From a bacterium (GTDB lineage Bacteria > Hinthialibacterota > Hinthialibacteria > Hinthialibacterales > Hinthialibacteraceae), in assembly GCA_963663405.2 (NCBI GenBank), contig CAXXSM010000086.1, positions 1 through 39,251 on the forward strand: a DNA stretch of 39,251 bases, read 5' to 3'. Positions within the stretch are counted from its first letter, which is position 1. Each line of letters opens with the position of its first letter. The translations under genes were made by a program, and so were the position numbers. Below are positions 21,391 through 39,251 of this stretch, in pieces. Below the pieces are notes generated by a model. The model made no database searches, was not told the DNA's origin, and worked only from the letters and a program-made list of their open reading frames with translations.

Positions 21391-21494
21391 CTGAATGATT
21401 TCGCTAAATTATTATACTTATCCACCCAGCGATGTATCATTTTTCACTCTATCGAATCACAGATACTTTTGTCAAGAGAGATATAACCATCCTC

Positions 21495-22249: not shown

Positions 22250-22829
22250 CGAAGTTACTCCATTTTTGATGAAAAAGGGTTTTCAATTTCGAGCGCGCGC
22301 GCCGTAGCCGGCTATTCACAGCCTCAAAATGGATCGAAAGAATGCTTGCAATTTCTTCTCTTGGAATTTGTTCGATATAGTATAACGTTAAAATTTCCCG
22401 GTCTTTCCTTGGCAGCCGGAAAAATATCTGTAGGGCTAAAGAGTTTTTCTCTTTCTCGTTGAGTCTTTCGCACGGTGTTGTAACCGGTTCCTCGTCGCTT
22501 CCTTTACGACGAAATATCCGGGCAATGCGTTCCCGCCGGATATGGTTGATACTCAAATGACGCGCAATTTGGAACAGTAGAGCGCGAACATTGAAGATGG
22601 CCTTTCCTTTCAACACATAATTGGTCCACAGCGACAGAAACGAGTCATGCACTATATCATTCACTTCTTCAATATTCCCAGTTTGTGCAACCACATATTT
22701 CCGTAATGGGTCCTGGTAAAAACCGATGATTTTTCGGAACGCATATTCAGATCCTGTGTCTAACAGCTTTTCCAGGCTCAAATGTGATGATTGAATAGTT
22801 TCCTCATGAAATTTCGGAATCGTTTCCAT
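22242..22829 (-). CDS. ECF-type sigma factor
   Basis: Region 2 (DIVHDSFLSLW, LLFQIARH) and region 4 (LPRKDREILTL...EEIASIL...VNSRLRRAR); ATG at 22829 preferred over TTG 22859. Confidence 0.9.
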   Translation of the reverse strand: METIPKFHEETIQSSHLSLEKLLDTGSEYAFRKIIGFYQDPLRKYVVAQTGNIEEVNDIVHDSFLSLWTNYVLKGKAIFNVRALLFQIARHLSINHIRRERIARIFRRKGSDEEPVTTPCERLNEKEKNSLALQIFFRLPRKDREILTLYYIEQIPREEIASILSIHFEAVNSRLRRARSKLKTLFHQKWSNFDE

Positions 22830-22922
22830 TCTAAAGACCAATATGAGTAACGCGATCAATAAAGGGCACTTCGACTATTAGTTTTATTCGTATATAAAAA
22901 CGATTACACCAATCCATATCAA

Positions 22923-22951
22923 ATAGTCGACTTCCAATCAAAATTTGGTCA
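22923..22951 (-). promoter_or_regulatory. Putative ECF-type promoter TGACC-N16-TCGACTAT
   Basis: Same bipartite motif and spacing recur at 24430-24458. Confidence 0.6.
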
Positions 22952-22957
22952 AAAAAA

Positions 22958-24391: not shown

Positions 24392-24429
24392 TCGGATTCA
24401 ATATCGAATTCAAAATTGTTTTCTTTAGT

Positions 24430-24458
24430 ATAGTCGATATTTCATATTCATCTGGTCA
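24430..24458 (-). promoter_or_regulatory. Putative ECF-type promoter TGACC-N16-TCGACTAT
   Basis: Identical half-sites and 16-nt spacer to 22923-22951. Confidence 0.6.
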
Positions 24459-24739
24459 TCAAAATTTTCAATTATCAACCAGAAAAAGAAGGATTGAAGA
24501 AACGCCTTCATTCTCCATTTAACGTTTCGTAACACTTTACTAATGATATGAAAAAAGTCTATAGTTTTTTACATTTGGCTGGTTTATCTCAAAAATGTGC
24601 GGATTCGTAGTATCGATATCCTGGAATTTATTATTGGATTGAATAGGTGAAAGAGCGATTATTGAATTTTCTCGGCAAATGTTCCTTTCATCATGAATTT
24701 AATAGAATAATTCATCATATTGAAAAATTGGAATGTTAA

Positions 24740-26299
24740 ATGAACTCACTAAATCGATTGACTTGTCTTCTGTTCTTGTTTCTATTCGTCACAATCTCTT
24801 ACTCATACACCGCTAACCACTGGCTCACACAATGGGGAAATCCCCAAAGGACTCGGTATTTTTCATCAGATTATATTCCTTCTCAAAAAGCCACCCGATT
24901 GACAAAAAGAACAATTCAATTGCCATTCCCAATTGAAGAATTATTCTATACGGCGGACGTTACTGGAGATGGAAAAGCCGAGTTCGTCTCGTTGATTCAA
25001 GATCCACCTTCGATCTTGATCGTGGATCTTACGAATGAATCATACGAACAGATTCCATTAGAAAAAAGTCCTCATCTGACGGAAGAGGATACTGAAATCC
25101 AATATGAGATTATTCAACTAGTGGACTATGATGGTGAACCAGGATTGGAGGTTTTTTGCGAAGTCCTGCCAGTTGTTCCCGGATCGTATTATGATGGCAA
25201 ACCGACATTTTACCAGATTGTTTCTCCCCGGCTCAAAAAAGTCATCCATCGATTTTCTGGTATTACCATTGAAGACCGGAGTGGTGATGGAATGTGGAGT
25301 GGGAGCGAAATCGCTTCCATTTTATTCAAGGATCAAACAGATCAATGGAAAATGGCCGCGTGCATGTCTGCCGGTCACGAGGATTACAAACCAAGGTCGA
25401 TCAATATATACAACATTGAAAACGGTCAGTTGGAGGCACAATTTCATACGGCCACGAGCACACGGAAGATTTCATTGCTGAAAACAGAAAGCGATGAAAT
25501 ATTGATCACGCTTTGGTCTCACACTCCTGATAATTGGATACGGATCAATGGAGAGATTCAATACGATGAAGATGGAAATAAAATTAATGTTAGTGAGATT
25601 TTGGATGAAAAGGTAGTAACCGATAAAGAAGGTTATAGTATCTGTTTGAACTATAATGGATCGCTGAACGAAGACGCGCTCCAATTACGCTGGTATTCAA
25701 AAATTGTGGATTACTGTTCCATCAATTCAGCAATTATCCAAGATTCCCTGAACAGAAATCTTGCCGTAGATTTATGGCATATCGTTCGCGCTTGGGATCC
25801 GCTATCCGCTGGAGGAATATGCATTTTTGATTTAGAAACGGGAGAAACAATAAATGAATTTCAAGCCGATGAGGGATTATCGTTTGAGCATATCATCGCT
25901 CCACCCCATAGTGATAGGATTTACACACGAATTTACGAACTTCCCCATTTAGTCCAATACAATATCCAAAATGGTGAAAGTAAAATTGTTGAATTATCCG
26001 ACAATTCCATCGTGCAATTAGAACTGATTGGGGCGGCGGATATGGATGGCGGCGGTGAGTATGATATTGTTGTTATGAGTAATGCCTCGGGTGAATTTGA
26101 ACTAATTGTTCTGGATACAGATCTGAACGAAAAAACCTCCATTCCAATTCCTCCATCCTATAAAACCGCTGTTTTTGGGGACGCGAATCAGGATGGATAT
26201 CCAGAAGTCTATTTGATCGATCAAAATACCAACCAGAGTCTCACCATTATTGAATACGGCAATCCTTCTTCTTTTTTCCCGTTTAACGATTACAAATAA
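24740..26299 (+). CDS. Secreted FG-GAP/VCBS-like beta-propeller protein
   Basis: Signal peptide; DVTGDGKAE, DYDGEPGLE, DMDGGGEYD, DANQDGYPE loops. Confidence 0.8.
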   Translation: MNSLNRLTCLLFLFLFVTISYSYTANHWLTQWGNPQRTRYFSSDYIPSQKATRLTKRTIQLPFPIEELFYTADVTGDGKAEFVSLIQDPPSILIVDLTNESYEQIPLEKSPHLTEEDTEIQYEIIQLVDYDGEPGLEVFCEVLPVVPGSYYDGKPTFYQIVSPRLKKVIHRFSGITIEDRSGDGMWSGSEIASILFKDQTDQWKMAACMSAGHEDYKPRSINIYNIENGQLEAQFHTATSTRKISLLKTESDEILITLWSHTPDNWIRINGEIQYDEDGNKINVSEILDEKVVTDKEGYSICLNYNGSLNEDALQLRWYSKIVDYCSINSAIIQDSLNRNLAVDLWHIVRAWDPLSAGGICIFDLETGETINEFQADEGLSFEHIIAPPHSDRIYTRIYELPHLVQYNIQNGESKIVELSDNSIVQLELIGAADMDGGGEYDIVVMSNASGEFELIVLDTDLNEKTSIPIPPSYKTAVFGDANQDGYPEVYLIDQNTNQSLTIIEYGNPSSFFPFNDYK

Positions 26300-26365
26300 G
26301 GGCTTATGGATTTCAGTCTTTCATGCGGGATAGTATGCTTGAGTCTTCCAATGTGAACTGGCGGC

Positions 26366-26722
26366 CTAGGGCCGACACTCGATTGGCAAGGGAACCATCA
26401 TCCTGGCCCCAGATAGATGCGCTAAACCCTGGTTGAGAATCCGTTTATCATACGTATGTTCTTCTTCCAACGCGCCTTTTTCATGCAGGCATTGAACGCC
26501 TTTCTGAGAGAGTGAATAAATGAATTCCGGCCGCCCTGGCTGCCCGCGTACAACTCGCTTTCTTTCGATCACGTAATCCAAGCAAAACAGTTTCGACATC
26601 CGCCTGCGGATGGTCCGAACATGGGCGCCTTCCAGGACGGCGATTTGCTTGACAGTCAAAAGCCGGTATTCCGCAATCAAGTACGCCAATTTCAGGTCTT
26701 TCGAATCGATTTTTTGATTCAT
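26366..26722 (-). pseudogene. Replic_Relax (replication-relaxation)-like protein, N-terminal wHTH only, probably truncated
   Basis: YRLLTVKQIA...RRRMSKL...GRPEFIYSLSQKG pattern; GGAGG RBS; no nuclease domain follows. Confidence 0.6.
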
Positions 26723-26890
26723 GATGTTTCCTCCATCTTTTTTATAAAAATAAGCGGGAAGAAATGACCAGAAATTTCAATTGAGCAAATCCACACGAAG
26801 GAATCCTCTATTGCTGAGGGTTGCATTGGAAATCTATGATAAGCGAGATAAGCAAAACCTGTTTGTAGCAAATTTGATTCATTTAAAAAA

Positions 26891-26906
26891 CCGAAACATT
26901 TAAATA
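26891..26906 (+). promoter_or_regulatory. Archaeal-type BRE-TATA motif
   Basis: CCGAAACA-TTTAAATA, upstream of GGTGA RBS (26942) and the 26943/26952 ORF. Confidence 0.65.
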
Positions 26907-26942
26907 CAGGTTCATCACCACTTTATAGAAACAACATCAGCG

Positions 26943-27536
26943 GTGATTGCATTGAATTTCGGACAATCAAACTACAATCAACATACGCCCTATATGGGCT
27001 TGGAATCGAGAACGGATTATTTGAATTCTTCTTCATCGGTTTATTCCCAATCTAAATCCTTGTCCCTGAAACAACCGGACACTTATTCTGGAGAGATTGA
27101 CTCGGCCACGGTTTCCTCCCCTACTCACTTGGATGCGCTGACTGATGGAATCCAATCCGAAAAATCGAGGGATCCGATCCATCGTTTTCTGGCGGATAAA
27201 AAAGCGTTTTTATCAAATAGCGTGGAAGATATTTTGGGGATGATTTATGAACGGGAATATTTACGGGATACGAATTGTTACCGGATCGATCGCGATTCCT
27301 GTTACATCTCACAGAAACTGTATGAAATCTATTACATTCCCCTTGGGCTGAATCCCAACATCGATAAACTGCGCTCCAATCTCGAACGGGAGATGATTGC
27401 GTTTGAACGGGAGAAGCGGATGGAATCGGTAGCGTGCTGGCGGGATATCACTCGCTTAAAAGGCGACCTGCGGGAAGTCATGCGGGAATTTTCCCAAGAG
27501 AATCGTAAAGGTTATCTGCTGTCAGGTGATCGATAA
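26943..27536 (+). CDS. Hypothetical helical protein, upstream partner of ATPase
   Basis: Long ORF ending 2 nt before ATPase start; real start may be TTG 26952 after GGTGA. Confidence 0.7.
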   Translation: MIALNFGQSNYNQHTPYMGLESRTDYLNSSSSVYSQSKSLSLKQPDTYSGEIDSATVSSPTHLDALTDGIQSEKSRDPIHRFLADKKAFLSNSVEDILGMIYEREYLRDTNCYRIDRDSCYISQKLYEIYYIPLGLNPNIDKLRSNLEREMIAFEREKRMESVACWRDITRLKGDLREVMREFSQENRKGYLLSGDR

Positions 27537-27538
27537 AA

Positions 27539-29521
27539 ATGGAGGTCTATGAATTATGCCGGAAGCTGAAACCGGTGTTAGGCGGCCGGGCGGATCGATT
27601 GTGGTTGGCCTATCTGGCCGAGGACAATCGCGGGAAACAGGAATTGGAGATCGCATTGCAGTTGTTAGCCGCTCAACATCTGGGCGTAAACGTTCAGGTC
27701 CCTGATGTTCATTTATCCGCTCCGCCACAGGATAAAGCTGATGGAACGTATAACCTTGGTTCGGTGGTCTATTGCGATCGGCCGCTTCACGCATTTGGGC
27801 TCCGAGAAGATGAACTGATCCAGCATACAGCGATCTTTGGCCGGTCGGGAGCGGGGAAAACCAATACGGTGTTTGTCCTTCTGGAGAGTTTTCTTAATCA
27901 AAAAAAGCCGTTCCTTTTGTTCGACTGGAAGCGGAATTATCGGGATCTTTTATCTGTGCGGGAGGATGAAATTTTAGTTTATACAGTGGGAGGGCAGACC
28001 GTTCCCTTCGCATTCAATCCATTGATACCTCCGGAAGGAACCAGCGCGGCGGTTTGGCTCAAAAAAATGATCGAGATCATCGCTCACTCCTATTACTTGG
28101 GAGAGGGCGTCATGTATCTTCTCCAGGAAGCGATCGATGCGGTGTATCACTCGTTCGGTGTGTACAAAGGAAATCCCCCCAAATACCCCACCTTTCAAGA
28201 TGTTCTGGAATGGCTGGAAAAACACCCAGTGAAAGGACGAAAAGCGCAATGGATGGATTCCGCTTTGCGGGGCGTTCGATCGATCTGTTTTGGGCATATG
28301 GGGAACGTGATGAACACCAGCGTGCAATCGAATGTGGCCAATCTCTTGGGCAAGAATGTGATCCTGGAGTTGGATAACCTGACCAACGCGGATAAAACAT
28401 TCACGATCGAGTCGCTCCTGCTGTGGATTCATCATTACCGATTGACGCAGCCGGACCGGGAGACCTTCAAACACGCCATGATCATCGAGGAAGCGCATCA
28501 CATTTTACTGAAACGTTCCGGCGCCGGGAGCGGCGGGGAAGCGATTACCGACACCATTCTCCGGGAAATCCGGGAATTGGGGGAAGGGATTGTGTTGGTA
28601 GATCAGCATCCGAGTTTGATCTCGATTCCCGCGATGGGCAACACCTACGCCACGATCTGCATGAATCTGAAACACCGGTCCGATGTCAACGCGGCGGGTG
28701 GGGCGATGCTGATTGACAATGAAGAGCGGGAATTATTGGGCCGGCTGCCAATCGGTCGGGCGGTCGTCAAACTCCAGGGCCGTTGGCTGCAACCGTTTGA
28801 GATCTCGATTCCTCACCGCAAAATCCCCAAAGGTTCAGTGAACGATACCGCTTTGGCGCAACACATGGTGGAATGGAATATCCTTAATCCCTATGCGGAT
28901 TATGAGGAAATCGTAAATGGTGATGAGGATGCTATCACTATCCAATTGAATGAGAAAGAAAAAACCTTTTTGATCGATGTGTTTCAGAATCCACTGTATG
29001 GCGCGGTGGAGCGGTACCGGCATCTTCATCTTAGCCGCAGGAAAGGAAACGCGATTCGGGAAGCGTGTATCGAAAAAGGATTGATTGAACCGGAGGAGAT
29101 TCGGACATACAGCGGAAAAACAGTTCTGCTGGGATTAACGCCAAATGGAAAAACAATCTTGCGTAATTTGGGATATGACGTTCCGGATAAATCCCGTTGG
29201 GGCAGTTTGGAACATGAGTTCTGGAAAGAAAAAGCCGCCCAACAATTCGTTCATTTGGATTGGACCGTAACGAAAGAAGAATCCGGCCATGGATATACCG
29301 ATCTTGTGGCGGAAAAGAACGGCCAAAAAATTGCGGTGGAGATTGAAACGGGAAAATCAAATTGGAGGGAAAATATCCGGAAGAATCTAGCGGGAGATTA
29401 TCGAGGGATTTTCATCCTAACTACCAAACCAGAAACGCAGAATCAGATTCTAAAAGTGATCGATGAAATGGAAACCAAGATCCCCATCAAAGTGAAACAA
29501 GTCCAAGATTTCGTGAAATAA
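27539..29521 (+). CDS. HerA/VirB4/FtsK-like ATPase (DUF87) with C-terminal wHTH and PD-(D/E)xK-like domain
   Basis: Walker A GRSGAGKT, Walker B IIEEAH, REIRELGEG..LVDQHPS; C-terminal EHEFW...TDLVAEK...IAVEIETG. Confidence 0.85.
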   Translation: MEVYELCRKLKPVLGGRADRLWLAYLAEDNRGKQELEIALQLLAAQHLGVNVQVPDVHLSAPPQDKADGTYNLGSVVYCDRPLHAFGLREDELIQHTAIFGRSGAGKTNTVFVLLESFLNQKKPFLLFDWKRNYRDLLSVREDEILVYTVGGQTVPFAFNPLIPPEGTSAAVWLKKMIEIIAHSYYLGEGVMYLLQEAIDAVYHSFGVYKGNPPKYPTFQDVLEWLEKHPVKGRKAQWMDSALRGVRSICFGHMGNVMNTSVQSNVANLLGKNVILELDNLTNADKTFTIESLLLWIHHYRLTQPDRETFKHAMIIEEAHHILLKRSGAGSGGEAITDTILREIRELGEGIVLVDQHPSLISIPAMGNTYATICMNLKHRSDVNAAGGAMLIDNEERELLGRLPIGRAVVKLQGRWLQPFEISIPHRKIPKGSVNDTALAQHMVEWNILNPYADYEEIVNGDEDAITIQLNEKEKTFLIDVFQNPLYGAVERYRHLHLSRRKGNAIREACIEKGLIEPEEIRTYSGKTVLLGLTPNGKTILRNLGYDVPDKSRWGSLEHEFWKEKAAQQFVHLDWTVTKEESGHGYTDLVAEKNGQKIAVEIETGKSNWRENIRKNLAGDYRGIFILTTKPETQNQILKVIDEMETKIPIKVKQVQDFVK

Positions 29522-29729
29522 GGAAAAATAAAATCTCTGGAGTGAAACACCGTGTCAAAGGAATCCGATTTCAGTGATTCCAGGAGTATTTACCTTTCAT
29601 ATTTCAATTGACCCTCTATAGAGCCTATTTCATTCCAGGATAAATAGAATCTTGGAATATCTTCATTCGGAAGAATCCGTTGGATAATTCCAAGATTCAT
29701 AATCATGCAATGCATGGGATAATTGATCT

Positions 29730-30614
29730 TCAATCAACAACCATGGGCTGTGATTTCTTCCCCTCTTTTGTGAGAGATTCAATCTGAGTAATGATGGTGG
29801 ATGCGCATCGGCGGATCTTCTCCAGACGATTGAGCAGTTTGTTTTTATCGCCTTCCCACAGGCGGATGTAATCGGACGACGCTTGGATAGCCTGTACGCT
29901 GAACCGTTCACAGACGACACAAGCGACGGCTTCGGCCTCCAATTCACGCAGTGGACGGGAATCGTTGGTTGTTTGTCTTTGATGAAGCAATTCATGGGCG
30001 AATTCATGCGCAAGCACAGCGAAGGTTTCCGCGGAATCCATTCCCTTTTTGATCGTGATGGATCCTTTTTTGGAATAGCCGTATGCCCGGCCTGCGTACC
30101 CATAATCGAGCTGGATTCCATTGTTACGAACAGCTTGCTCCAGCATGGAAAGACGTTGTCTCGCTTCACCTTGTGCTCGAAACGGTTCGGGTAACTTTGA
30201 GCCGTGTGTCTGCGCTAGATCGAAAACACAGACCACACGAAACGAATGTATTGTGTCTTCCTCAAATGGTACTTTCGAGTCTTCTTGCTTTGTTTCTTTT
30301 GACTGTATTGAAACTGTTTTCTTTTTGGTGCAAACCGGAGCGAGGACACGGACGGCTTTCTCGCCACGTTTAATAGATCGATGAAGGCGTTTCCAGGTTT
30401 GGAATCCGGCGACTTGCGTGGCTTCAGGGCGTTGGGCCAAAATGAGAAATTGATTGGAGGTGGAGTAGGTATGGAAAAGCGCCATGGTTTTCAGGTATCG
30501 AGTCATCTCGGTGGAGTATCCTTGTTCCAGATGTTCTCCCAATTTGGCGATGGTCTCCTGGATGATTTTCCGGCTTTGTTTAATTCGATCTTTGGTAGTT
30601 TGGTTTGGTTTCAT
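29730..30614 (-). CDS. ArdC-like ssDNA-binding/antirestriction protein with zincin motif
   Basis: FHTYSTSNQFLI..QRPEATQVAGFQTW....RSIKRGEKA, VFDLAQT, HEFAH, ELEAEAVA; GGAGG RBS before ATG 30614. Confidence 0.85.
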   Translation of the reverse strand: MKPNQTTKDRIKQSRKIIQETIAKLGEHLEQGYSTEMTRYLKTMALFHTYSTSNQFLILAQRPEATQVAGFQTWKRLHRSIKRGEKAVRVLAPVCTKKKTVSIQSKETKQEDSKVPFEEDTIHSFRVVCVFDLAQTHGSKLPEPFRAQGEARQRLSMLEQAVRNNGIQLDYGYAGRAYGYSKKGSITIKKGMDSAETFAVLAHEFAHELLHQRQTTNDSRPLRELEAEAVACVVCERFSVQAIQASSDYIRLWEGDKNKLLNRLEKIRRCASTIITQIESLTKEGKKSQPMVVD

Positions 30615-30792
30615 TTGTATCCTCCGGCCAACTGGCCACTCTTGGACCAGTTGGCTGGAGGATCTCATCGAGTGAATTTTTCAAGATCCAATTGTGAGAA
30701 GTGAGTACCAGGTTAACGAAAGGTCAATCAAGGAAAAACAGCTGGATTATGTCCACTAATAATTTTCAATATGGAAGATAATTCCTCAAAAA

Positions 30793-30810
30793 AAGGGGAT
30801 TTCTCCCCTT
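30793..30810 (-). terminator. Probable intrinsic terminator
   Basis: Minus strand AAGGGGA-GAAA-TCCCCTT followed by a T run, just after the 30830 stop. Confidence 0.6.
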
Positions 30811-30829
30811 CAGTTCATCACAATCAATC

Positions 30830-31180
30830 CTAACGCAAGAACAGATAATACCATCGCCGTTTTGGCTTCTGGCTTTCCGTTTCACGATGAATCCGTTGAC
30901 GTTCCAGTTCAGAAAGTTTCCGGCCGATCTCTTCGGTGGTTTCTTCCTGAGCTACAGCCCGATAGGCTGTTACGCTTTTGAAGATCACGGATTGATACTT
31001 TGCTTCGACGATATCGATCAGTTCGAGGATCGCTGCGCCAATTCGAGCGGCTTTGACATGCTCTTGGAGATCGTTGAAGTGACTATCGAAAATCGATTGT
31101 TCGGTCAGGATATCTCGCAGTCCTCGGCCTACATTTCGATTCGATTTTGCGTTAGCTGTTTTACTACCGTTATTATTCAT
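30830..31180 (-). CDS. Hypothetical coiled-coil protein
   Basis: AAAGGA RBS before MNNNGSK at 31180; basic/aromatic C-terminus KRRWYYLFLR. Confidence 0.65.
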   Translation of the reverse strand: MNNNGSKTANAKSNRNVGRGLRDILTEQSIFDSHFNDLQEHVKAARIGAAILELIDIVEAKYQSVIFKSVTAYRAVAQEETTEEIGRKLSELERQRIHRETESQKPKRRWYYLFLR

Positions 31181-31202
31181 GATTTTGTTCCTTTCTAGTT
31201 TT

Positions 31203-31673
31203 TTAGATTTCTTGCCAGACCGATCCGGAATTGATGCCGGGGGCAATGGCGTGCGCGGCGGCTGTCAGCGTTCGATAGACTGTCCCATTGAACAGGATGG
31301 ATCGACCATCGGAGCGTTTGTTGGATGGATCGTCCACGATGACGGCTTCGTAGGTTTGGCCCCGGTAGATGGTTTGAATCGTGGAACCAACCGGTGGGAT
31401 TTCCAATGGTTTGCGGGTGTGTTCGGGGATGTATTGCTCATCGCCGGTTTGGTTTGGAATCTTGGTTTGGATTTTCTCCTTTCTTTTTGGCTTTGAACTT
31501 TGATTCAGTGTTGGCGGTGATTTGACACTTGGTTGTGATTTGTTCGAATCACAATCGATGAGACGTCTTTCTTGTTCACGTATGCAATCGGTTTGGATGC
31601 CACAGCTCGCGCATTCCGGAGCGATGGGATCAAACAGGGCGAAACAGGATGGATTTTGGACACAGGTATCCAT
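31203..31673 (-). CDS. Cys-cluster plus DUF2924/RAMA-like DNA-binding protein
   Basis: AGGAG RBS; C-x9-C-x2-C-x5-C; PPVGSTI...YRGQTY...FNGTVYRTLTAAAHAI. Confidence 0.65.
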   Translation of the reverse strand: MDTCVQNPSCFALFDPIAPECASCGIQTDCIREQERRLIDCDSNKSQPSVKSPPTLNQSSKPKRKEKIQTKIPNQTGDEQYIPEHTRKPLEIPPVGSTIQTIYRGQTYEAVIVDDPSNKRSDGRSILFNGTVYRTLTAAAHAIAPGINSGSVWQEI

Positions 31674-31722
31674 TGATAAATCTCCTTTCGATATTGGTTA
31701 AATTTTTAAGAAGAATTGGTTA

Positions 31723-33147
31723 CTACCGGTTTTTGCGGAGTAGTTCTGAAAACTTTGTGTAGAACGCTTTGGGGAGTTTGGGCAGGTTTTGAACGACTAC
31801 GTTCTCTTTGAAAAAGTTTTTCACGTAGTCCGTTTGGATACCAACAGCCACACACTCGATTCCTGCCTGTTCACACTTACGCAGATTCTCTTCGAGGTGT
31901 TTGATGACGGTCAGCTGCATCGTTGGATTCCCACTGTATGGTTCCCCATCGGTAAGGATAAGGATGATCTTCCGAGTCTCCTTTCGAACGACGATCCGTT
32001 TCGCAGTGAAAATAATGGCGTCATCGATGGGCGTGTATTCCAGGGCGTTCATAGCAGGAACGCGAGGCTTCAGCGACCGGAATGGTTCGTCGAACGCCTT
32101 AAAGATGGAATAGACGCAGGGAAAGAAGCGGGTGTAGAGTGTGGAGAGTTGCTGCAAATCCATCCCCGTTTCTCGTGTCAATCTCGCGAAGGCCCGTTTA
32201 GAAGGTTCGGTGGTATAACCGATCACTTCCGAGGGGATACGCAGTTGGTTGAGCGTATCAGCGAACAGAATGACGACCTGACGGGCGCATTTCACCAAAC
32301 GTTTGATCTCAGTTTTTTTAAGGTTGGAGACTTTTTGAGACAGAATTTCCGTTTCGGTCTTCTCATCTGGGTAGTCCAGATAGATGACTGTGTCGAACCG
32401 GTCTTTGAAGGCTTTGTTCAAAATCTGGGTACCGGCATACAATCCGGATTCATCGCCATTGCCGATCGTATTGGCAGTGGCGATGATCCGAAAATCGGGC
32501 TGGGAAGCGATACTCTCACCGTCTTTTTCGAGAAGAGTGAGTTTACCGCATTCTTCGAGCACGCTTTGGAGCACGAATAGGATATTCGGTAGAGCCGCGT
32601 CGATCTCATCGAGCAGTAGCCAGTCACCGTTTTTCATCGCGGTGGGCAGGATGCCTTCACTGTAAACCATCTCTTTCCCACGAACAGTCCAGCGGCCTAA
32701 GAAATCAGAGACCGTAGTCTCGCCATTCAGGTTGCAGCGCCGCAAAGGAGTATTGGTCTGGGCGGCGAGCTGCATAACCAGCGAACTTTTTCCTGTGCCG
32801 GTAGGGCCGACGATCATGACGTTCTCCTGGTGGTTAATGGCGTGGATCAGGTAGGCGGCCTCGGGCGGGAATTGATAATGCGGATCAAGGTTAGGCGCTA
32901 GTGGACTGGTTCCATTTCTCTTTTTGAGCGCCGCGTCATGAATCCGGAACTCTGCTGTGGCTTGTATCGGTGTTCGTTTGACGGTTTTGCCGGATTGGAT
33001 CTGATTGAGCAATGCCGGAGCCACCAAAGGCGCGCCAGGGTATTGCTTCAGGTACTCTTGGGCTGTTGTGCGGTGGCATTCACCCAAGTGACCATACAAA
33101 GCGCCATGGATTGACTCTCCACAAAGTTGACAGGTGATAGTGTTCAT
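31723..33147 (-). CDS. MoxR/CobS-like AAA+ ATPase fused in frame to partial CobT-like VWA domain
   Basis: N-terminal C2H2-like finger, GPTGTGKS, LLLDEID, FRIIATAN, DRF; then EVIGYTT...ILTDGEP...VAVGI; ATG 33147 with AAGGA RBS. Confidence 0.8.
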   Translation of the reverse strand: MNTITCQLCGESIHGALYGHLGECHRTTAQEYLKQYPGAPLVAPALLNQIQSGKTVKRTPIQATAEFRIHDAALKKRNGTSPLAPNLDPHYQFPPEAAYLIHAINHQENVMIVGPTGTGKSSLVMQLAAQTNTPLRRCNLNGETTVSDFLGRWTVRGKEMVYSEGILPTAMKNGDWLLLDEIDAALPNILFVLQSVLEECGKLTLLEKDGESIASQPDFRIIATANTIGNGDESGLYAGTQILNKAFKDRFDTVIYLDYPDEKTETEILSQKVSNLKKTEIKRLVKCARQVVILFADTLNQLRIPSEVIGYTTEPSKRAFARLTRETGMDLQQLSTLYTRFFPCVYSIFKAFDEPFRSLKPRVPAMNALEYTPIDDAIIFTAKRIVVRKETRKIILILTDGEPYSGNPTMQLTVIKHLEENLRKCEQAGIECVAVGIQTDYVKNFFKENVVVQNLPKLPKAFYTKFSELLRKNR

Positions 33148-33253
33148 CTCTTTTTCCTTTCTCGTAATAAATAAAAAAACCCCGGCGGATACCGGGGCTG
33201 TTTCGTTTGTGGGCTCTATGCCCTTTTTCATTTGTTTGAACTGTGGAATCGGA

Positions 33254-33490
33254 TCATTGGATCTTGATTCCAGGATCGGTGAAATTTTTTTCACAGTTTT
33301 GGCAGTAGAGATATTCCATTACCGGATTGATTCCATCCTCGACAGACTCGATTTCCTCTTCCGCCCAAATCAAACCGCAATCATCCTGGTAGAGATTGCG
33401 ATAGATACTGGATGGAAGCACGACACAGAGCTGGATGCGTTTCACATCTTCATTTCCACAATGCGGGCATTGGATTTCTTTGATACACAT
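33254..33490 (-). CDS. Small Zn-ribbon protein
   Basis: CPHC...CQNC, AAGGA RBS. Confidence 0.65.
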   Translation of the reverse strand: MCIKEIQCPHCGNEDVKRIQLCVVLPSSIYRNLYQDDCGLIWAEEEIESVEDGINPVMEYLYCQNCEKNFTDPGIKIQ

Positions 33491-33698
33491 TTCATTTTTC
33501 CTTTCCTTGATTGGTGTGGTTTTCGGTGAAATTGAAAAAGACCGGATAGAACCTTTGTTCCATCCGGCCTTTTGCCTATGAATTGATTCAAATAGAACTA
33601 CTCAACATCGAAGTCATTGATGTTGAGTTAGCGCATCATCTTTGCGGGGGAAGGATAACTTGTAGGATGATTCCAGGAGTGAGAAAAAGGAAAATGGA

Positions 33699-34136
33699 TT
33701 ACTCACTTCCCCAAGTGTAGACCATACATGGATCACCTTCTTCATCCGGTTCCGTTTTCTCGCGTAGCTCTTGTGCGGTGAGACTGTCCACATCGTAATC
33801 CTGGACGCGGATTCTTACGCCAGAAGGGATGTTTTGGATATCCTGGATGACGCCGCCGCGCACAAAGACGGTCACTTCATCCAAATCCATGACTGTAACA
33901 TCCTTGATGGCCCGGCAACCGATCATCGCCATTCCATCGGTTTTTAGGTTGGTCATGATTTCACGCTCTTCCTCCGCATCATACGCGTACATCGCAGCGA
34001 GTTCCTTGTAAGCTTGGCTTTCCTCATTACTACCATCGGATCTCATAAAGAACGAGTTTGCATATTCGTGTTCTCCATCCACGATAGTGTAATGGACCTT
34101 CATCGTTTGATTTCCTTTCCTTTTGGTGTTTTTCAT
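33699..34136 (-). CDS. Hypothetical acidic protein of mobile elements
   Basis: GGAGG RBS; VFVRGGVIQDI...VQDYD segment. Confidence 0.65.
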   Translation of the reverse strand: MKNTKRKGNQTMKVHYTIVDGEHEYANSFFMRSDGSNEESQAYKELAAMYAYDAEEEREIMTNLKTDGMAMIGCRAIKDVTVMDLDEVTVFVRGGVIQDIQNIPSGVRIRVQDYDVDSLTAQELREKTEPDEEGDPCMVYTWGSE

Positions 34137-34170
34137 TGTTTGGATACCTCCTTCATTTTTTTTAATTGAA

Positions 34171-34434
34171 CTAGTAATCCTCTGGATAAATCAACGACAC
34201 CAGATTTTGTCCATCGGTTCCAGCTCCTTCATCCAGGATGCCCCACAACCGGCGCCCGTTGATCTGGACGGTCCACAGGTTGGGATTGGCTGGATCGGGA
34301 ACTTTCATCTTCTCAAAGAGAATCGTGAACGCGTGATGGATTTCTTCCGGCGTCAATGTTTCGTATACGGTCCGTGACACAACGGTTTGGGGTGGGACTT
34401 CTACGGTATTGCTTGTTCGATTAGTTTCTTTCAT
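34171..34434 (-). CDS. Small plasmid/phage-type hypothetical protein ending LIYPEDY
   Basis: GGAGG RBS; terminal LxxPEDY motif. Confidence 0.65.
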   Translation of the reverse strand: MKETNRTSNTVEVPPQTVVSRTVYETLTPEEIHHAFTILFEKMKVPDPANPNLWTVQINGRRLWGILDEGAGTDGQNLVSLIYPEDY

Positions 34435-34906
34435 TTTGGAACCTCCATTGTTATGGTTGAGGCAAAACGGCCTGGCAGGCCAGTATCTGTCCTGCCAGGT
34501 TGTTTTGCACTTTGGATTTGGACTTGGATAGAAAATGTGATCGGATTAATCGAGAAAAAAGATAGAAAGTGTTCACTAGGTGAATCTCGCCACTTTACGT
34601 TTTTAGACGGGAATATCCCGTATAGTTTTTATATCTTGACCACAGACCGTTCGTTCGCTGTTCAACGGATTGTTGGGACAAACCGGATACAAACAAAGGT
34701 TTCATGTGGCCGATGTTGGTCTTCCAACCTGAAAGTCATCTCATTTTCCTGGCGGAAAAGATTCTACTTTCGGATGGTGTTTTGTTGTTCTTGGGCAGAA
34801 GTGAATTCCCTCCAGTTAATAAATCTTCCGGTTTTGAGCGTTTGGACAACTCAGTTTGGACAACTCAATTTTGAGAGGATTGTTGTATCTCTTGAGTGAT
34901 TGCAAA

Positions 34907-34922
34907 CCGTAACCTTTAAATA
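34907..34922 (+). promoter_or_regulatory. Archaeal-type BRE-TATA motif
   Basis: CCGTAACC-TTTAAATA, ATG 24 nt downstream at 34946. Confidence 0.6.
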
Positions 34923-34945
34923 GTAGTGACAATTCTCCTTGCCTC

Positions 34946-35119
34946 ATGAAACGAATCACACCCCACACACCCGAGAATGAAATTGCTGATTGGATTGAAG
35001 AACAACTCAAAGAAGTCAACCTAAAAGTCGAACACATTATTTACCGGCTGCGGTATGAAGATCCACGCATTTGGTTGGCTGAGAACGAGCGGAAAGATAA
35101 GAACCTAAAGAAATATTAA
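34946..35119 (+). CDS. Small hypothetical protein (57 aa), not in ORF track
   Basis: MKRITPHTPENEIADWIEEQLKEVNLKVEHIIYRLRYEDPRIWLAENERKDKNLKKY; start at leaderless distance from a TATA motif. Confidence 0.5.
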   Translation: MKRITPHTPENEIADWIEEQLKEVNLKVEHIIYRLRYEDPRIWLAENERKDKNLKKY

Positions 35120-35488
35120 TCTCTGGATGGGATTGTTTTTTCACCCCTGCCTTTTCGATCAAAATAGACGGTTTCTGAACGAATTCATTTTTTCTTCCTT
35201 GTTAAAATTTCGTGACTCAACTTTTGAGGATTCTCCAAAAATGACCTCTTACCGAAAACCGTGCGAAAGCGTATGATTCGAGCTCAATGGGGTGGGGGGA
35301 CAAGCGAACTCAAACTAAAAGATGGAAAAATAGGCGATTTTCTTGGGGAATAGGATGAAATTTTAGGAGGGTATTTACCTTTCCAATTTAGGATGCTCAC
35401 CGTTGAACTAATGCCTATCGTTTTATTGACGAGAAACGTGAATGGAACTCATTTTTTGAGCGTTTTTGCATTGATAGAAAGAGAATTC

Positions 35489-35902
35489 TCAAAGGTAAAA
35501 TATCAGGTCCCGTTCTTTCTGTTCCTGGATGGAATCCTTCTTCTGTCGGAAATTTAGAACTTGATTGGCCACTTTCACTAGGGCCCGGGGAAACTTGTTG
35601 GAAAACACCCAGCCTTCCCGATAGCCGTATGTCTTGTTGAACCGGGAAACGTGATCGATCAATCCCATCCGCCGCATTTTGGCGCGAACCGTCTCCAAAC
35701 TTCGGCGGCTTAATCCCAGTTGATCCACGATCGGATCCAGGACCGGCAGGAACTGATCCTTAGCCCATTTCAGTTCCACAAAGATCGACAGAAAAATCTT
35801 TTGATGATTAGAGTTATCCGGAAAGAGAATTCTCGCTAACTCATCCGCGGATTCCAACCGGGATATCGTGTTATGGTTAATCTCGATTTTTGTGGAAGCC
35901 AT
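35489..35902 (-). CDS. Putative winged-helix protein
   Basis: LGLSRRSLETVRAKMRRMGLID HTH-like pattern; 1 nt from upstream stop. Confidence 0.7.
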   Translation of the reverse strand: MASTKIEINHNTISRLESADELARILFPDNSNHQKIFLSIFVELKWAKDQFLPVLDPIVDQLGLSRRSLETVRAKMRRMGLIDHVSRFNKTYGYREGWVFSNKFPRALVKVANQVLNFRQKKDSIQEQKERDLIFYL

Positions 35903-35903
35903 T

Positions 35904-36248
35904 TTATTTAGGGCGGTAGGATCGATTAGCTTGATTGACTCGTTTGCGTAATGTCACTCGTTGCTTCGCAATTTCAAGTGCCTGGGAACGAAGGCTTGGA
36001 CCAAAGGTGGATTCTATCCAATAGATCGTTTCATACGCGCTAACGTAAATATCGTTCAGTAACCGTTGGAACCTCCAGCGGATTCCCTGGCGCGTCATAC
36101 CAAACGCGCGCTCTATTTTCATCCCGTAATTCTTGCGCAGCACTATCGTTTTCGGATCGGTCTGTTTCAGCTCAATGGATAGATCGTTCTCCTGAAATAG
36201 AGCTTTCAACCGTTGAATGAACTCCAAATCCTTTTGTGTTAGTTTCAC
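35904..36248 (-). CDS. Hypothetical HTH-like protein
   Basis: FGMTRQGIRWRF; start uncertain (GTG 36248 favoured by TATA spacing; ATG 36296 or 36359 possible). Confidence 0.65.
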   Translation of the reverse strand: MKLTQKDLEFIQRLKALFQENDLSIELKQTDPKTIVLRKNYGMKIERAFGMTRQGIRWRFQRLLNDIYVSAYETIYWIESTFGPSLRSQALEIAKQRVTLRKRVNQANRSYRPK

Positions 36249-36270
36249 ATTCCATTTCAAGATAGATGTT

Positions 36271-37044
36271 CTATTTAAGGTTTTCGATCTCCTCATCACA
36301 ATCCCGTTTGAACACCCAGATATCATTCCCCTCTTGCCGCAAATGGACTTCCCGGTCATGTTCCATGAAAATCAAGGTGATAAACCGCCAGATTCGATCT
36401 TTTGGTTTGGATGGATGCAATACTGGGATCTCTGAAAACAGCACACCACGCTGGTTAATAAGAGCGGAGATGGCGCGTCGGTAATCGGTCATGCAGAACG
36501 TTTCCGAACGATCATACGCAAACTCATCATTTCCCGTTTCGGCGCCGATCAACCGGTCCAAATCTTGTTCCAATCCTGGGATGGTGTCCAATTGGGGATA
36601 GTCCTCCAACTCCAGTTCTTTCGAGCGGGAATCAGCAAGTTGTTTTCTCATCCTCTCCCGGAGTTGTTGTTTCCGTTCCCGTGATTCTTTCATCCGCTCT
36701 CTAAAATAATCCGCGTCGAACAGCCGTTCATCGAAGAGAAATTTGGACGGAACAGTAGCGCCGCATTGCGCGCAGGCGTAATGATACACTTTCTTCGTTA
36801 ACCTGGCTTTGCAGCAGGGGCTTGCTTGAAATTCAATCGTCGGATCAAGCTGAATACCGCAGGAACATCGCCATGTCGTGGGAGAGAGAACCTCCATCTT
36901 TCGGCCGCAGTGTGGGCACCGGTAGCGCATCCGCAGCACCGCCACGTAAAAATCCCGCGCTATGGATTGGATTGTTGTTACTCGATCGTGAACACGGTCG
37001 ATCGCCGCAATCAGAGGATTTGGATTCCTTCGTGGAATGAGCAT
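36271..37044 (-). CDS. Zn-ribbon protein with ScpA/kleisin-like C-terminal winged helix
   Basis: CPHC, CSC, CC, CAQC; C-terminal FITLIFMEHDREVHLRQEGNDIWV resembles the ScpA F.ALL.L...G.V.L.Q...DI motif. Confidence 0.65.
   Translation of the reverse strand: MLIPRRNPNPLIAAIDRVHDRVTTIQSIARDFYVAVLRMRYRCPHCGRKMEVLSPTTWRCSCGIQLDPTIEFQASPCCKARLTKKVYHYACAQCGATVPSKFLFDERLFDADYFRERMKESRERKQQLRERMRKQLADSRSKELELEDYPQLDTIPGLEQDLDRLIGAETGNDEFAYDRSETFCMTDYRRAISALINQRGVLFSEIPVLHPSKPKDRIWRFITLIFMEHDREVHLRQEGNDIWVFKRDCDEEIENLK
36272..36287 (-). promoter_or_regulatory. Archaeal-type BRE-TATA motif
   Basis: TCGAAAAC-CTTAAATA, in-frame GTG (MKLTQKD) 24 nt downstream. Confidence 0.5.
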
Positions 37045-37066
37045 GCCATTGGGGATATGCGCAAAG

Positions 37067-37106
37067 CATATAGATGTTTCGGTTCGAAAAACGAAAGGTT
37101 TATATA
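37067..37106. promoter_or_regulatory. Divergent pair of archaeal-type BRE-TATA motifs
   Basis: Minus CCGAAACA-TCTATATG (37082-37067; ATG 23 nt downstream) and plus ACGAAAGG-TTTATATA (37091-37106). Confidence 0.65.
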
Positions 37107-37141
37107 GATGTCGAGACTTACTGATTTACAGGTGATCAAGA

Positions 37142-37300
37142 ATGGAAGAACTGTATGAATGTCCTTATTGTTCATCGTCAAACACAATTTGGCGGGGCTA
37201 TCGCAAATTGAAAGAAGGGCGCGTTCGAATTCGCCAATGCAAATCCTGCAAACGGCGATTCACGCCCAAAAAACAACCGGAATACGGTGATGAACCATGA
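37142..37300 (+). CDS. Small Zn-ribbon protein (52 aa), not in ORF track
   Basis: MEELYECPYCSSSNTIWRGYRKLKEGRVRIRQCKSCKRRFTPKKQPEYGDEP; AGGTGAT RBS; ATGA overlap with next gene. Confidence 0.75.
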   Translation: MEELYECPYCSSSNTIWRGYRKLKEGRVRIRQCKSCKRRFTPKKQPEYGDEP

Positions 37301-37596
37301 ATGGAATAGCCGCAAAACCGGAGATGGAATTCAAAGCCGGGGCGGTTCGCGCCGCTATCTGGATGAATCCACATCAATCCGCCGATGGTAAATCGTTTAC
37401 CAGCGCGAAAGTCGTCGTGGAACGGATTTACAAGGATGAAAGCGGTCATTTTAAAAGCACACACCGGCTCGATACCAATGATATCCCCAAGGCGATCCTG
37501 CTTCTTAAAAAGGCGTTCGAATGGATGCTTATACTCAAGAAACCGGAGCCTGACCATCCGACGATCCAGTCCCATTTCAAACCGGCGATCCCCTAA
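37297..37596 (+). CDS. Small beta-rich protein, possibly PC4-like ssDNA-binding
   Basis: FKAGAVRAAIW.N...ERIYKD..G.FKST..L..NDIPK pattern; GGTGA RBS. Confidence 0.7.
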   Translation: MNGIAAKPEMEFKAGAVRAAIWMNPHQSADGKSFTSAKVVVERIYKDESGHFKSTHRLDTNDIPKAILLLKKAFEWMLILKKPEPDHPTIQSHFKPAIP

Positions 37597-37605
37597 CCGT
37601 CTACC

Positions 37606-37845
37606 ATGAATCCCTGCTTTGAAGAGCGGACTTTTTTGGCGAATGAGTCACCAATTTGGATTACGATTCAAAGAATCCGAGATCTGCGAAATATGGCTGA
37701 TGCCTGCCGTCATCGTATGCAAGAATTAAGCCGAGAGCCCCACAAGAATTCTTCGGAGATCCGGTTTGAAGAAACCGTTCTTCATTCGACCTTACGAACC
37801 ATTGAGAAAATGGAACATTCATTGTTTCTGGAAAGGAATGACTAA
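37606..37845 (+). CDS. Small hypothetical helical protein
   Basis: 79 aa, follows previous gene by 9 nt, converges on cdc6. Confidence 0.5.
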   Translation: MNPCFEERTFLANESPIWITIQRIRDLRNMADACRHRMQELSREPHKNSSEIRFEETVLHSTLRTIEKMEHSLFLERND

Positions 37846-39113
37846 AGATTTTGCCCACAGGTCTTGAAGACTTTTTGGACGACTTTTTCTGGAAGAGAGG
37901 AAGACAGCTCCCGGGTTTTTCCATACCGCCCCTTTGAGATCACCCGGGCGTTGATTAATCCATAAATATCCAAAAAACTGACGATATCAGAGAATCGCCG
38001 CTGCGTGAGTGTCCGCACGCCCCGTTGCTCACAAATCGATCGATAAATATCATAGGCGGGCCCGGTCCAGAGTTTTTCACGCGAGTTTTGCAACCCTGTA
38101 TAGCAGGCTAAGAGAGCGCATTTCTGTTGAGGCGCGAGAGCGTGGATTAACTGCTCGGTCTTGTCGATCTCCAACAAGGAATCCGCCTCATCCACTTCAC
38201 GCACACCCAGATAACCGCTCGAATCTTCAGCGATTTTGACTCCTTTGACCAGCAACTCGATGGCTTTGCGCGCGTCACCATTCTCCCGTGACGCGTACGC
38301 GGCGATTTTGCGAATCGCTGCGGGATCGACTTTTCGGGTATCGAGGGCTTTTTCCACCCGGAGATTCAAGATTTCGATTAGATCCATGGCGTCGTAGGGC
38401 TCAAAAATGATATCCGTTTTTTTGAGCACGGAGAGAATTCGAGGATCCAGGGTTTTATCCCATTCGATTCGATTGGTCAGCAAAAGGTAGAACAGTCGGA
38501 CGGGAATCCGTTTGGGCAAGGTCTTGGCTAAAAACGTGTAAAAGAGATCGCTGTTGGAGGTGACATTGTCGACCTCGTCCACCACAATGCATACCAAGTC
38601 ATTTCGAGTTGTCAGCGCCTGGATTACGGTTTCCTGCATCTGATCCAACGCAATGCCCTTGCGGTACCGTTTGGTTGTTCCATCCAAGGATAAGGCCAGC
38701 TCGTTCAACGCGCCGAAACAAGTTTTCGGAGTAGTGAGATCGACGTAATAATACTGAAACTGGATCTGTTTGACGCCGCACATGGACGCCAAAGCGTTGA
38801 GAAAATGCAGGCAGGTGACCGATTTCCCTGCGCCGGAAGGACCGTAGATCAGGAGATTGGCCGGCGAATCACCGGCGAGCACCGGTGACAAGTATTTGGC
38901 CAATCGATGTAGTTGTTGTTGGCGGATATTGCGTTGAAAGATCTCCTTCAATACCGCTACCCGTTCGGATTCCGTCAGTTTTTCGTCATCGAGATAGGAG
39001 GGATTCAGCGTGATTTTCTTGTCTTCGATATGGAGAAACGCTTCTTGAATCAAGGATTCTGTGCTCGTTGTCGAGGTGGATCGGCTGGTTCCACAGGAAA
39101 TCTTCTGACTCAT
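37842..39113 (-). CDS. cdc6: Orc1/Cdc6-family AAA+ replication initiator
   Basis: LIYGPSGAGKS, VVDEVD, FEPYDAMDLIEILNLR, GDARKAIELL sensor II, C-terminal wHTH LTQRRFSDIVSFLDIYGLINARVISKGRYGKTR. Confidence 0.9.
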   Translation of the reverse strand: MSQKISCGTSRSTSTTSTESLIQEAFLHIEDKKITLNPSYLDDEKLTESERVAVLKEIFQRNIRQQQLHRLAKYLSPVLAGDSPANLLIYGPSGAGKSVTCLHFLNALASMCGVKQIQFQYYYVDLTTPKTCFGALNELALSLDGTTKRYRKGIALDQMQETVIQALTTRNDLVCIVVDEVDNVTSNSDLFYTFLAKTLPKRIPVRLFYLLLTNRIEWDKTLDPRILSVLKKTDIIFEPYDAMDLIEILNLRVEKALDTRKVDPAAIRKIAAYASRENGDARKAIELLVKGVKIAEDSSGYLGVREVDEADSLLEIDKTEQLIHALAPQQKCALLACYTGLQNSREKLWTGPAYDIYRSICEQRGVRTLTQRRFSDIVSFLDIYGLINARVISKGRYGKTRELSSSLPEKVVQKVFKTCGQNL

Positions 39114-39205
39114 GCCGCATAGGAAGGAGCCTTTTACTATTTAAATCTTCTTTTGTCCTGAAGGAGTGATAACAGATAACCGTAAGGGAAGATTTCCTGT
39201 GGAAC
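39088..39205. repeat. Perfect 18-bp inverted repeat, ORB-like
   Basis: GTTCCACAGGAAATCTTC (39088-39105) and its reverse complement (39188-39205). Confidence 0.85.
39138..39153 (-). promoter_or_regulatory. Archaeal-type BRE-TATA motif of cdc6
   Basis: AAAGAAGA-TTTAAATA, ATG 25 nt downstream, no Shine-Dalgarno. Confidence 0.6.
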
Positions 39206-39251
39206 GTAATAATAAATTATATGTTATTTACTTCTTTTATTACTTACAATA

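Follow-up and report, generated by a model that had tools for sequence, protein, structure and literature searches.

The DNA analysed here, called the window throughout, is the whole 39,251-nt stretch of contig CAXXSM010000086.1 from a bacterium of the Hinthialibacterota; it holds a copy of an integrative element with an archaeal-type orc1/cdc6 gene, and the subject of this work is a short motif found six times between positions 26891 and 39153. Each motif joins a box similar to the B recognition element (BRE) of archaeal promoters to an 8-bp TATA box. With a probability of about one half, these motifs are the promoters of the element, roughly 38 kb long, and transcription would begin ~23 nt downstream of the TATA box. 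As judged from its recurrence in related loci, the CGAAA-TATA unit is conserved and element-specific, a cis-element shared across a widespread family of integrative elements of bacteria.

The six motifs of the window

All six 16-mers reported by a first-pass annotation of this DNA were confirmed at their coordinates, and in five of them CGAAA or CGTAA is followed, after 2-3 nt, by T(T/C)TA(A/T)AT(A/G). As that annotation had also noted, four motifs precede start codons devoid of a Shine-Dalgarno (SD) sequence, and the other two precede GGTGA; the four distances are 23, 23, 22 and 24 nt. Regarding these two, motif 1 (26891-26906, plus strand; CCGAAACA-TTTAAATA) precedes the operon at 26943-29521, has GGTGA behind it at 26942-26946, and scores 24.3 bits with the position weight matrix (PWM) described below; motif 5 (37091-37106, plus strand, 24.2 bits) is divergent from motif 4 and is followed by GGTGA at 37131-37135 and by an ATG at 37142.

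As for the SD-less starts, motif 2 (34907-34922, plus strand, 20.1 bits) is 23 nt from the ATG at 34946 of a 57-aa gene, whose homologues have the motif 22-26 nt before their ATG; motif 3 (36272-36287, minus strand, 21.6 bits) lies within the 3' end of gene 36271-37044, 23 nt from the GTG at 36248; motif 4 (37067-37082, minus strand, 17.8 bits) is 22 nt from the ATG at 37044; and motif 6 (39138-39153, minus strand), made of an A-rich BRE-like element and TTTAAATA, is 24 nt from the orc1 ATG at 39113. The GTG at 36248 is the true gene start, with homologues aligning only from residue ~36-38 of the longer open reading frame (ORF). A putative seventh motif (AACCGGAAGATTTATTAAC; 34815-34833, minus strand) scores 14.5 bits and has no downstream ORF; the same site reads CGGAAGATTTATAAA in the other three copies of the element present in this genome. 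In the alignments of the four copies, the substitutions, counted by eye, are located in the spacers, for instance between motif 5 and its SD; BRE and TATA are spared, except for the A-rich part of motif 6 and for motif 1 of the copy on contig C4, where homology begins at the motif and the changes keep the consensus (CGTAA / TTTATATA).

The PWM was trained on 51 sites from relatives only, the window sites being left out, and the five highest-scoring sites that it finds in the 39-kb window are motifs 1, 5, 3, 2 and 4, in this order (24.3-17.8 bits). A comparison with chance, suggested by the first-pass annotation, came out in favor of the motif: five window sites exceed 15 bits, whereas 100 Markov shuffles had 0.32 such sites on average and never more than 3. 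Motif 6 has no CG in its BRE and is missed by this PWM; it is backed by the upstream regions of homologous orc1 genes. At genome scale, a strict regular expression had 24 matches in 8.44 Mb, 16 of them within the four element copies, and a looser one had 449, 25 of which fall in element-related regions (2.0% of the genome); the first ATG of an ORF of at least 40 aa is 22-27 nt downstream for 8 of these 25 matches, against 9 of the 424 outside. By these statistics, the six motifs are not chance occurrences.

Recurrence of the unit in related loci

The related loci number 89, that is, nine from species-representative genomes and 80 metagenome stretches kept of 114. In these loci (Hydrogenedentota, Desulfarculia and metagenomes), the unit CGAAA-N2-3-TTTAWATA recurs, and its end precedes either an ATG without an SD, by 22-27 nt, or a GAGGTGA SD, by 21-25 nt; the regular expression gave 65 matches, against 18.5 ± 4.6 in simulations, corresponding to 54 non-redundant sites. 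The distance between the TATA end and the first ATG with an ORF of at least 40 aa behind it is bimodal over the 54 sites: 25 of them are at 22-27 nt, where 2.9% of random positions fall (binomial p 3e-24 for partly homologous sites), and 9 are at 35-39 nt, with 2.2% of random positions (p 2e-6, with the same partial homology). The genes behind the sites belong to at least seven families, with some singletons in addition, and the sequences between motif and start vary, with conserved lengths.

Inspection of the upstream regions of homologues, another step that the first-pass annotation had proposed, bears out the motif and its spacing in gene sets chosen by homology. The zinc-ribbon gene at 37142-37300 has 34 tblastn matches in related loci; a TATA-like box is present in 24 of its 29 distinct upstream regions, 21 of these 24 with a BRE-like element, and the box is 21-25 nt from the SD in 19/20 cases and 35-38 nt from the ATG in 21/24. 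In the family of gene 36271, the TATA occurs in 9 of 26 members, the remainder being preceded by another gene, and 7 of the 9 boxes are 22-25 nt before the ATG. Two genes internal to operons, 35489 and 37297, served as controls and had TATA-like boxes in 3/22 and 3/18 cases, at scattered distances. The orc1 upstream regions of the relatives share a box similar to the archaeal origin recognition box (ORB), a CACT-N4-AGTG element and TTTAWATA preceded by an A-rich stretch; the orc1 ATG is 22-24 nt after the TATA in the closer relatives, and the orc1 leader of the distant ones has two additional ORB-like boxes.

Other sequence features were seen around these sites. GGGACC/GGTCC (GGxCC) repeats occur on both sides of many BRE-TATA units and form dyads (locus L011 at 12290, L071 at 2458, L075 at 6730); they may be operator sites of a regulator of the element. 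In locus L007, a single TATA is placed between two inverted CGAAA-like arms, as a BRE-TATA-BRE unit. Upstream of the homologues of gene 35489 (L007, L011, L014 and others), TTTTAACA ... TTTTGAtCAAAAAGGCAGGGGTGAAAAA precedes the start, with a strong SD; of the core genes, this one alone may have a promoter of host type.

Copies of the element, hosts and relatives

The window corresponds to a whole contig (C86) of an 8.44-Mb metagenome-assembled genome (MAG) of 170 contigs, 82% complete; the genome contains a full bacterial 16S rRNA (1545 bits), and its rRNA promoter is canonical (TTGACG, 16-nt spacer, TATAGT). Contigs C110, C141 and C4 repeat positions 20798-39251 at ~90% identity, and fragments are present elsewhere in the genome, so that the bacterial genome holds four copies in total. 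The complete copy is on C110 (189 kb), from ~10.5 to 48.5 kb, between a sigma54 activator gene on one side and glycoside-hydrolase and oxidoreductase genes on the other; a tyrosine integrase is its terminal gene, and neither a tRNA nor a direct repeat of at least 12 nt was found in its boundary zones. A gene-by-gene comparison of the copies gave dS values of 0.06-0.47 and dN/dS ratios of 0.03-0.37 over all of the 12 genes tested; these ratios therefore indicate that the genes were kept functional, under purifying selection, while the copies diverged.

The stretch 20798-26445, that encodes an extracytoplasmic function (ECF) sigma factor (22242-22859) and FG-GAP proteins, had been taken for separate, adjacent bacterial DNA. 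This view does not hold, because the stretch is inside the repeated element in C110 and C4; it is present in C86, C110 and C4 and absent from C141, and from this pattern it is an accessory cassette of the element, not neighboring host DNA. The window copy is degenerate at two places: at 26445, a deletion of ~0.5 kb relative to C110 shortens the Replic_Relax gene, and at 32275-32286 a deletion of ~1.5 kb joins the CobS-like and CobT-like genes into a 523-aa ORF.

Regarding its relatives, the Orc1 protein of the element belongs to a clade with 53-71% internal identity. All nine of its genome loci are bacterial: four are in Hydrogenedentota MAGs, four in Desulfarculia (two complete MAG chromosomes of 4.8 and 6.5 Mb, and two loci of the isolate Desulfocarbo indianensis SCBM) and one in an unclassified bacterium; the element was found in 5 of 35 genomes of the host phylum. 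No Orc1 relative was found in IMG/VR, and none of the 423 matching plasmids of PLSDB reaches 60% identity; those listed, 25 in number, come from archaea (haloarchaea and Methanosarcina), at 26-32% identity. For Orc1, the nearest large Atlas clusters are archaeal; for gene 35489, the nearest ones are all bacterial, most commonly Thermodesulfobacteriota and Planctomycetota. Judging from these comparisons, Orc1 is archaeal in type, and the element clade is old, diverse and bacterial as far as its hosts are known. The proposal of the first-pass annotation that the element was recently acquired from archaea is not supported, in view of the bacterial confinement of the Orc1 clade among the nine genome loci, the low identity of the archaeal plasmid proteins and the divergence of the four copies under purifying selection. 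In the literature searched (main texts, without supplements), no description was found of bacterial elements with Orc1/Cdc6 or of bacterial BRE/TATA promoters, and a preprint on the Planctomycetes plasmidome has no mention of Orc1/Cdc6.

Orc1 and the predicted origin

The orc1/cdc6 gene (37842-39113, minus strand) encodes an AAA+ initiator with a lid and a C-terminal winged helix, as recognized from Pfam (Cdc6_C 1.4e-21, Cdc6_lid 2.8e-11) and from structure-profile matches: residues 64-412 align to residues 25-370 of Sulfolobus solfataricus Orc1-1 (2qby_A, 1.1e-46), the match is full-length and includes the wing of the winged helix, and Aeropyrum pernix ORC1 was likewise matched. The promoter of orc1 is bracketed by two exact, inverted ORB-like boxes, TTCCTGTGGAAC, one within the first codons of the gene (39088-39099, minus strand) and the other at 39194-39205 (plus strand), after which an AT-rich stretch is cut by the window end; in the C4 copy, the sequence past that point shows an AT-rich region of ~120 bp, closed by a further ORB-like box. 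The ORB-like pattern is not enriched window-wide, with 6 matches against 3.7 expected when two mismatches are allowed. The boxes are conserved in the relatives, and L011 carries TTCCAGTGGAA verbatim; in the part of the Pyrococcus study drawn on here, the ORB core is TTCC...GGAA and the mini-ORB core is TTCCAGTGGAA (PMC1904270). Orc1, the inverted boxes and the AT-rich region therefore point to an archaeal-style, orc1-adjacent predicted origin, cut by the window end.

A search for MCM in 14 genomes gave weak, generic AAA+ matches only, with none in the element copies, and its control matched all 14 genomes and was unspecific. In the C110 copy, a 501-bp insertion (44409-44909) is placed between the orc1 promoter and the AT-rich origin region; it is 98.7-100% identical to sequences on C103, C148, C151, C153, C23, C36, C7 and C73, and looks like a small non-autonomous mobile element.

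Comparison with known systems

In the sections of the Pyrococcus furiosus study considered here, the BRE is RRAAA at -36 to -32, the TATA box, WTTTAAAW, spans -30 to -23 and has its last conserved A 23 bp before the transcription start, and BRE-TATA-BRE units are bidirectional (PMC6640164); the corresponding excerpt on haloarchaea proposes CGAAA as the BRE and reports that leaderless mRNAs dominate (PMC4983044). Within the limits of these excerpts, the archaeal likeness claimed in the first-pass annotation stands for both the sequence and the distance to the start codon: the element has RRAAA/CGAAA just upstream of an 8-bp WTTTAAAW-type box, a predicted start ~23 nt after the box with leaderless or very short leaders, and, in L007, the bidirectional arrangement. 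It differs from archaeal promoters in its bacterial hosts, which have a canonical sigma70 rRNA promoter and no detectable TATA-binding protein (TBP) or transcription factor B (TFB), and in the GGxCC repeats around many sites.

The predicted origin resembles the archaeal origins in which ORBs flank a DNA unwinding element (DUE), with an Orc1-1-type protein and inverted TTCC-N-GGAA boxes around an AT-rich stretch; unlike archaeal orc1-adjacent origins, it is on a bacterial integrative element. As for the late promoters of phage T4, they consist of TATAAATA, read by gp55/gp33. They share with the element a lone 8-bp TATA-type box without a -35, and L007 has exactly TATAAATA; the T4 box, however, is at -10 and not at ~-27, and it has no BRE-like element. 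Finally, the C110 copy has the tyrosine integrase, FtsK/HerA-type ATPase, Replic_Relax and ArdC of bacterial integrative and conjugative elements, from which the element differs by its archaeal-type replication and control core and by promoters that are not sigma70-like.

Proposed mechanism and alternative explanations

In the proposed mechanism, the TATA box would fix the 5' end of the mRNA ~23 nt downstream, and transcripts would begin at the AUG itself in leaderless genes and otherwise at the G of GAGGUGA, which is 12-14 nt upstream of the AUG; a start at this distance would explain both spacing classes. The reader of the motifs is most likely a DNA-binding factor encoded by the element, which would be one of its conserved, uncharacterised core proteins and would recruit the host RNA polymerase. 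A more specific version, possible but rather doubtful, is a second initiation pathway independent of sigma promoters, in which element factors would act as TBP and TFB and place the host RNA polymerase ~23 nt downstream of the TATA; the conserved zinc-ribbon and winged-helix core proteins are tentative candidates for these roles.

Several observations weigh against the motifs being promoters of this kind. The Pfam models of TBP and TFIIB matched four archaeal control genomes and none of six host genomes (this one being 82% complete), a negative that may miss divergent analogues; the predicted folds of the two core proteins modelled (36271-37044 and 35904-36248) appear neither TFB-like nor sigma-like; and the TATA variants TATAAA and TATAAG resemble a -10 hexamer. 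Not all genes appear leaderless, as the orc1 ATG of the distant relatives is ~45-58 nt after the TATA. Motif 3 is the weakest of the six: of the relatives inspected, a single one (L006, second copy) has a counterpart, and in the others its downstream gene is translationally coupled. Regarding the statistics, the partial homology of the counted sites makes the binomial p values overstate their independence, and both the regular expression and the PWM presuppose the motif, so that only the homology-chosen gene sets and the listings of upstream regions are free of this bias.

The resemblance to a -10 hexamer is the basis of the main rival explanation, unlikely in itself, in which the host sigma70 holoenzyme reads the TATA as a -10-like element without a -35, and the archaeal likeness is inherited or coincidental. 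Transcription would then, with equally limited likelihood, start 6-8 nt after the box and give SD-less leaders of ~15-18 nt or SD leaders of ~28 nt. Many variants (TATAAA, TATAAG, TATATA) have 4-5 of 6 matches to TATAAT, the bacterial RNA polymerase is the only one detected in the hosts, and AT-rich archaeal promoters often fire in Escherichia coli. Against these points, the box ends in A or G, whereas a sigma70 promoter, with its -35 and -10 hexamers 16-18 bp apart, has an A at -11 and needs a T at -7, and A and T interchange at nearly every position of it; the motif sites have neither a -35 nor a TG extension, no -10-like signal is present between TATA and ATG, and a scan of 26300-39251 with the sigma70 consensus gave 8 sites, against 16.3 expected in shuffles, none of them at the motifs. 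This reading also leaves unexplained the conserved CGAAA 2-3 nt upstream and the spacing across unrelated families (22-27 nt from TATA to ATG, 21-25 nt from TATA to SD), and the strong promoter of the host has canonical -35 and -10 boxes. Less probable still is a role of the motifs as operators or architectural sites, bound by a protein of the element such as a repressor or an origin or partition factor, with the real promoters weak or unrecognised. The GGxCC repeats around many sites, the divergent pairs that amount to inverted repeats, the inverted CGAAA-like arms around the L007 TATA, the several small winged-helix and zinc-ribbon proteins of the core and the location of the orc1 motif among ORB-like boxes would all suit such a role; however, single oriented motifs are at a fixed distance from the starts or SDs of at least seven gene families, these short intergenic regions offer no other promoter candidate, and operators need no spacing of ±2 nt to a start codon.

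The two remaining explanations concern the origin of the DNA. It is improbable that the element shuttles between the domains or immigrated recently, with promoters and an Orc1/ORB origin that work only in archaea and are silent in bacteria: this view is in line with the archaeal nature of the nearest large clusters and of all the listed plasmid relatives of Orc1, and the hosts of the 80 metagenome loci are unassigned, but all nine genome loci are bacterial, including complete chromosomes and a cultured isolate, the element is in 5 of the 35 genomes of the host phylum, and the listed archaeal plasmid proteins are merely 26-32% identical. In addition, four diverged copies in a single genome keep their motifs intact at a dN/dS of 0.03-0.37, the nearest clusters of gene 35489 are bacterial only, and the element includes bacterial-type cassettes and an intrinsic terminator. 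As for chance AT-rich matches or an assembly chimera of archaeal and bacterial DNA, their probability is negligible. A chimeric join, which the first-pass annotation had raised, was conceivable since the window is a whole contig of a MAG, and the Logan contigs of three DNA runs are too fragmented to span 26.3-26.9 kb; the identical junctions, with bacterial flanks, in C110 (189 kb) and C4 (93 kb) are independent copies, and such a join is therefore excluded. The PWM, regular-expression and spacing statistics in the genome and in the relatives argue likewise against chance.

Three further promoter types were considered and rejected. In a sigma54 -24/-12 promoter, GG and GC would have to be at places where they are not found; for a T7-type promoter, the box is too far from the start; and an ECF-sigma signal (GGAAC ... 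GTC) is present at only about half of the regular-expression sites and absent from the orc1 promoters.

Few molecular traits separate Bacteria and Archaea as sharply as promoter architecture, and here an element family long resident in several bacterial phyla keeps, under visible constraint, a BRE/TATA unit spaced as in archaea, along with an initiator and a predicted origin of archaeal type. If the proposed start sites are true, either an unknown factor adapts the bacterial polymerase to TATA-type promoters, or the polymerase is positioned in an undescribed way; should the second pathway also be true, archaeal-type promoter logic would for the first time have been shown to operate in Bacteria, coupled with an Orc1/ORB origin at work in a bacterial cell. 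Either outcome for the start sites, an adapting factor or a new positioning, bears on the divergence of the transcription systems and on the passage of genes across the domain boundary, and it might yield orthogonal promoter-factor pairs for use in bacteria. A direct test is feasible, since D. indianensis SCBM, a cultured host, carries two copies of the element.

Other genes of the element

Core gene 36271-37044 (minus strand) encodes a protein whose predicted fold (pLDDT 80.4) has a long helix, two Cys4 zinc ribbons, a second long helix and a C-terminal winged helix. The winged helix is generic (Z 8.8, the background level of the fold search), its best match being the C-terminal domain of ScpA, a kleisin (E 5e-3, TMt 0.77); compared with TFB, in which an N-terminal zinc ribbon precedes two cyclin folds, the model has two zinc ribbons, no cyclin-fold match was listed for it, and its N-terminal part was barely covered by the fold searches. 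The adjacent core gene (35904-36248, minus strand; 114 aa from the GTG at 36248) gave a model with a pLDDT of 86.3 and no PDB fold match at E ≤0.001, the best one being ScpB (E 0.49). That these two predicted proteins might form an SMC-accessory-like (kleisin/ScpB) pair is only a lead.

The third gene of this group (35489-35902, minus strand) is a core gene for a 137-aa protein, probably with a helix-turn-helix, conserved in the relatives, and the 52-aa zinc-ribbon protein encoded at 37142-37300 (plus strand) has weak matches to ribbons of the NrdR/TFIIS/Elf1 type, below the cut-offs. Profile searches against PDB with three core families gave nothing significant (best E 0.18-1.2, with irrelevant chains in the lists); Pfam gave nothing above the cut-offs for eight promoter-driven proteins of the relatives and two core proteins; and PHROGs, searched with ten element proteins, gave one weak match to a family of unknown function and no sigma-like match.

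Among the remaining genes, the truncated Replic_Relax gene (26366-26722, minus strand) encodes 118 aa, against 368 aa in C110. It is followed by the genes for a HerA/FtsK-type ATPase (27539-29521, plus strand; DUF87, TraG-like P-loop), for an ArdC-like protein with an ArdC N-domain and a metallopeptidase motif (29730-30668, minus strand) and for the 523-aa fusion of a CobS-like AAA domain to a CobT VWA C-terminus (31723-33294, minus strand), which corresponds to two intact genes in C110. A strong intrinsic terminator, with a 9-bp GC-rich stem and a T-run on the minus strand and its mirror on the plus strand, is located at 33178-33199, inside the annotated 5' end of this last ORF; its true start is therefore probably an internal Met near 33150.

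Other mobile DNA in the window

The whole contig is a mobile-DNA hotspot; Rfam and tRNA scans of the window gave nothing. At its left end, and separate from the Orc1 element, three consecutive and partly overlapping ORFs encode tyrosine recombinases (2-511, 508-1488 and 1269-2507). The two ORFs scanned, the second and the third, have Phage_integrase domains, and the first is open at the window start; the layout resembles a recombinase-in-trio element. The left half also contains a DUF4277 transposase-like ORF (7553-9232), a DDE transposase (11376-12845) and a serine resolvase (19659-20228), the last with an 89% identical copy on contig C122.

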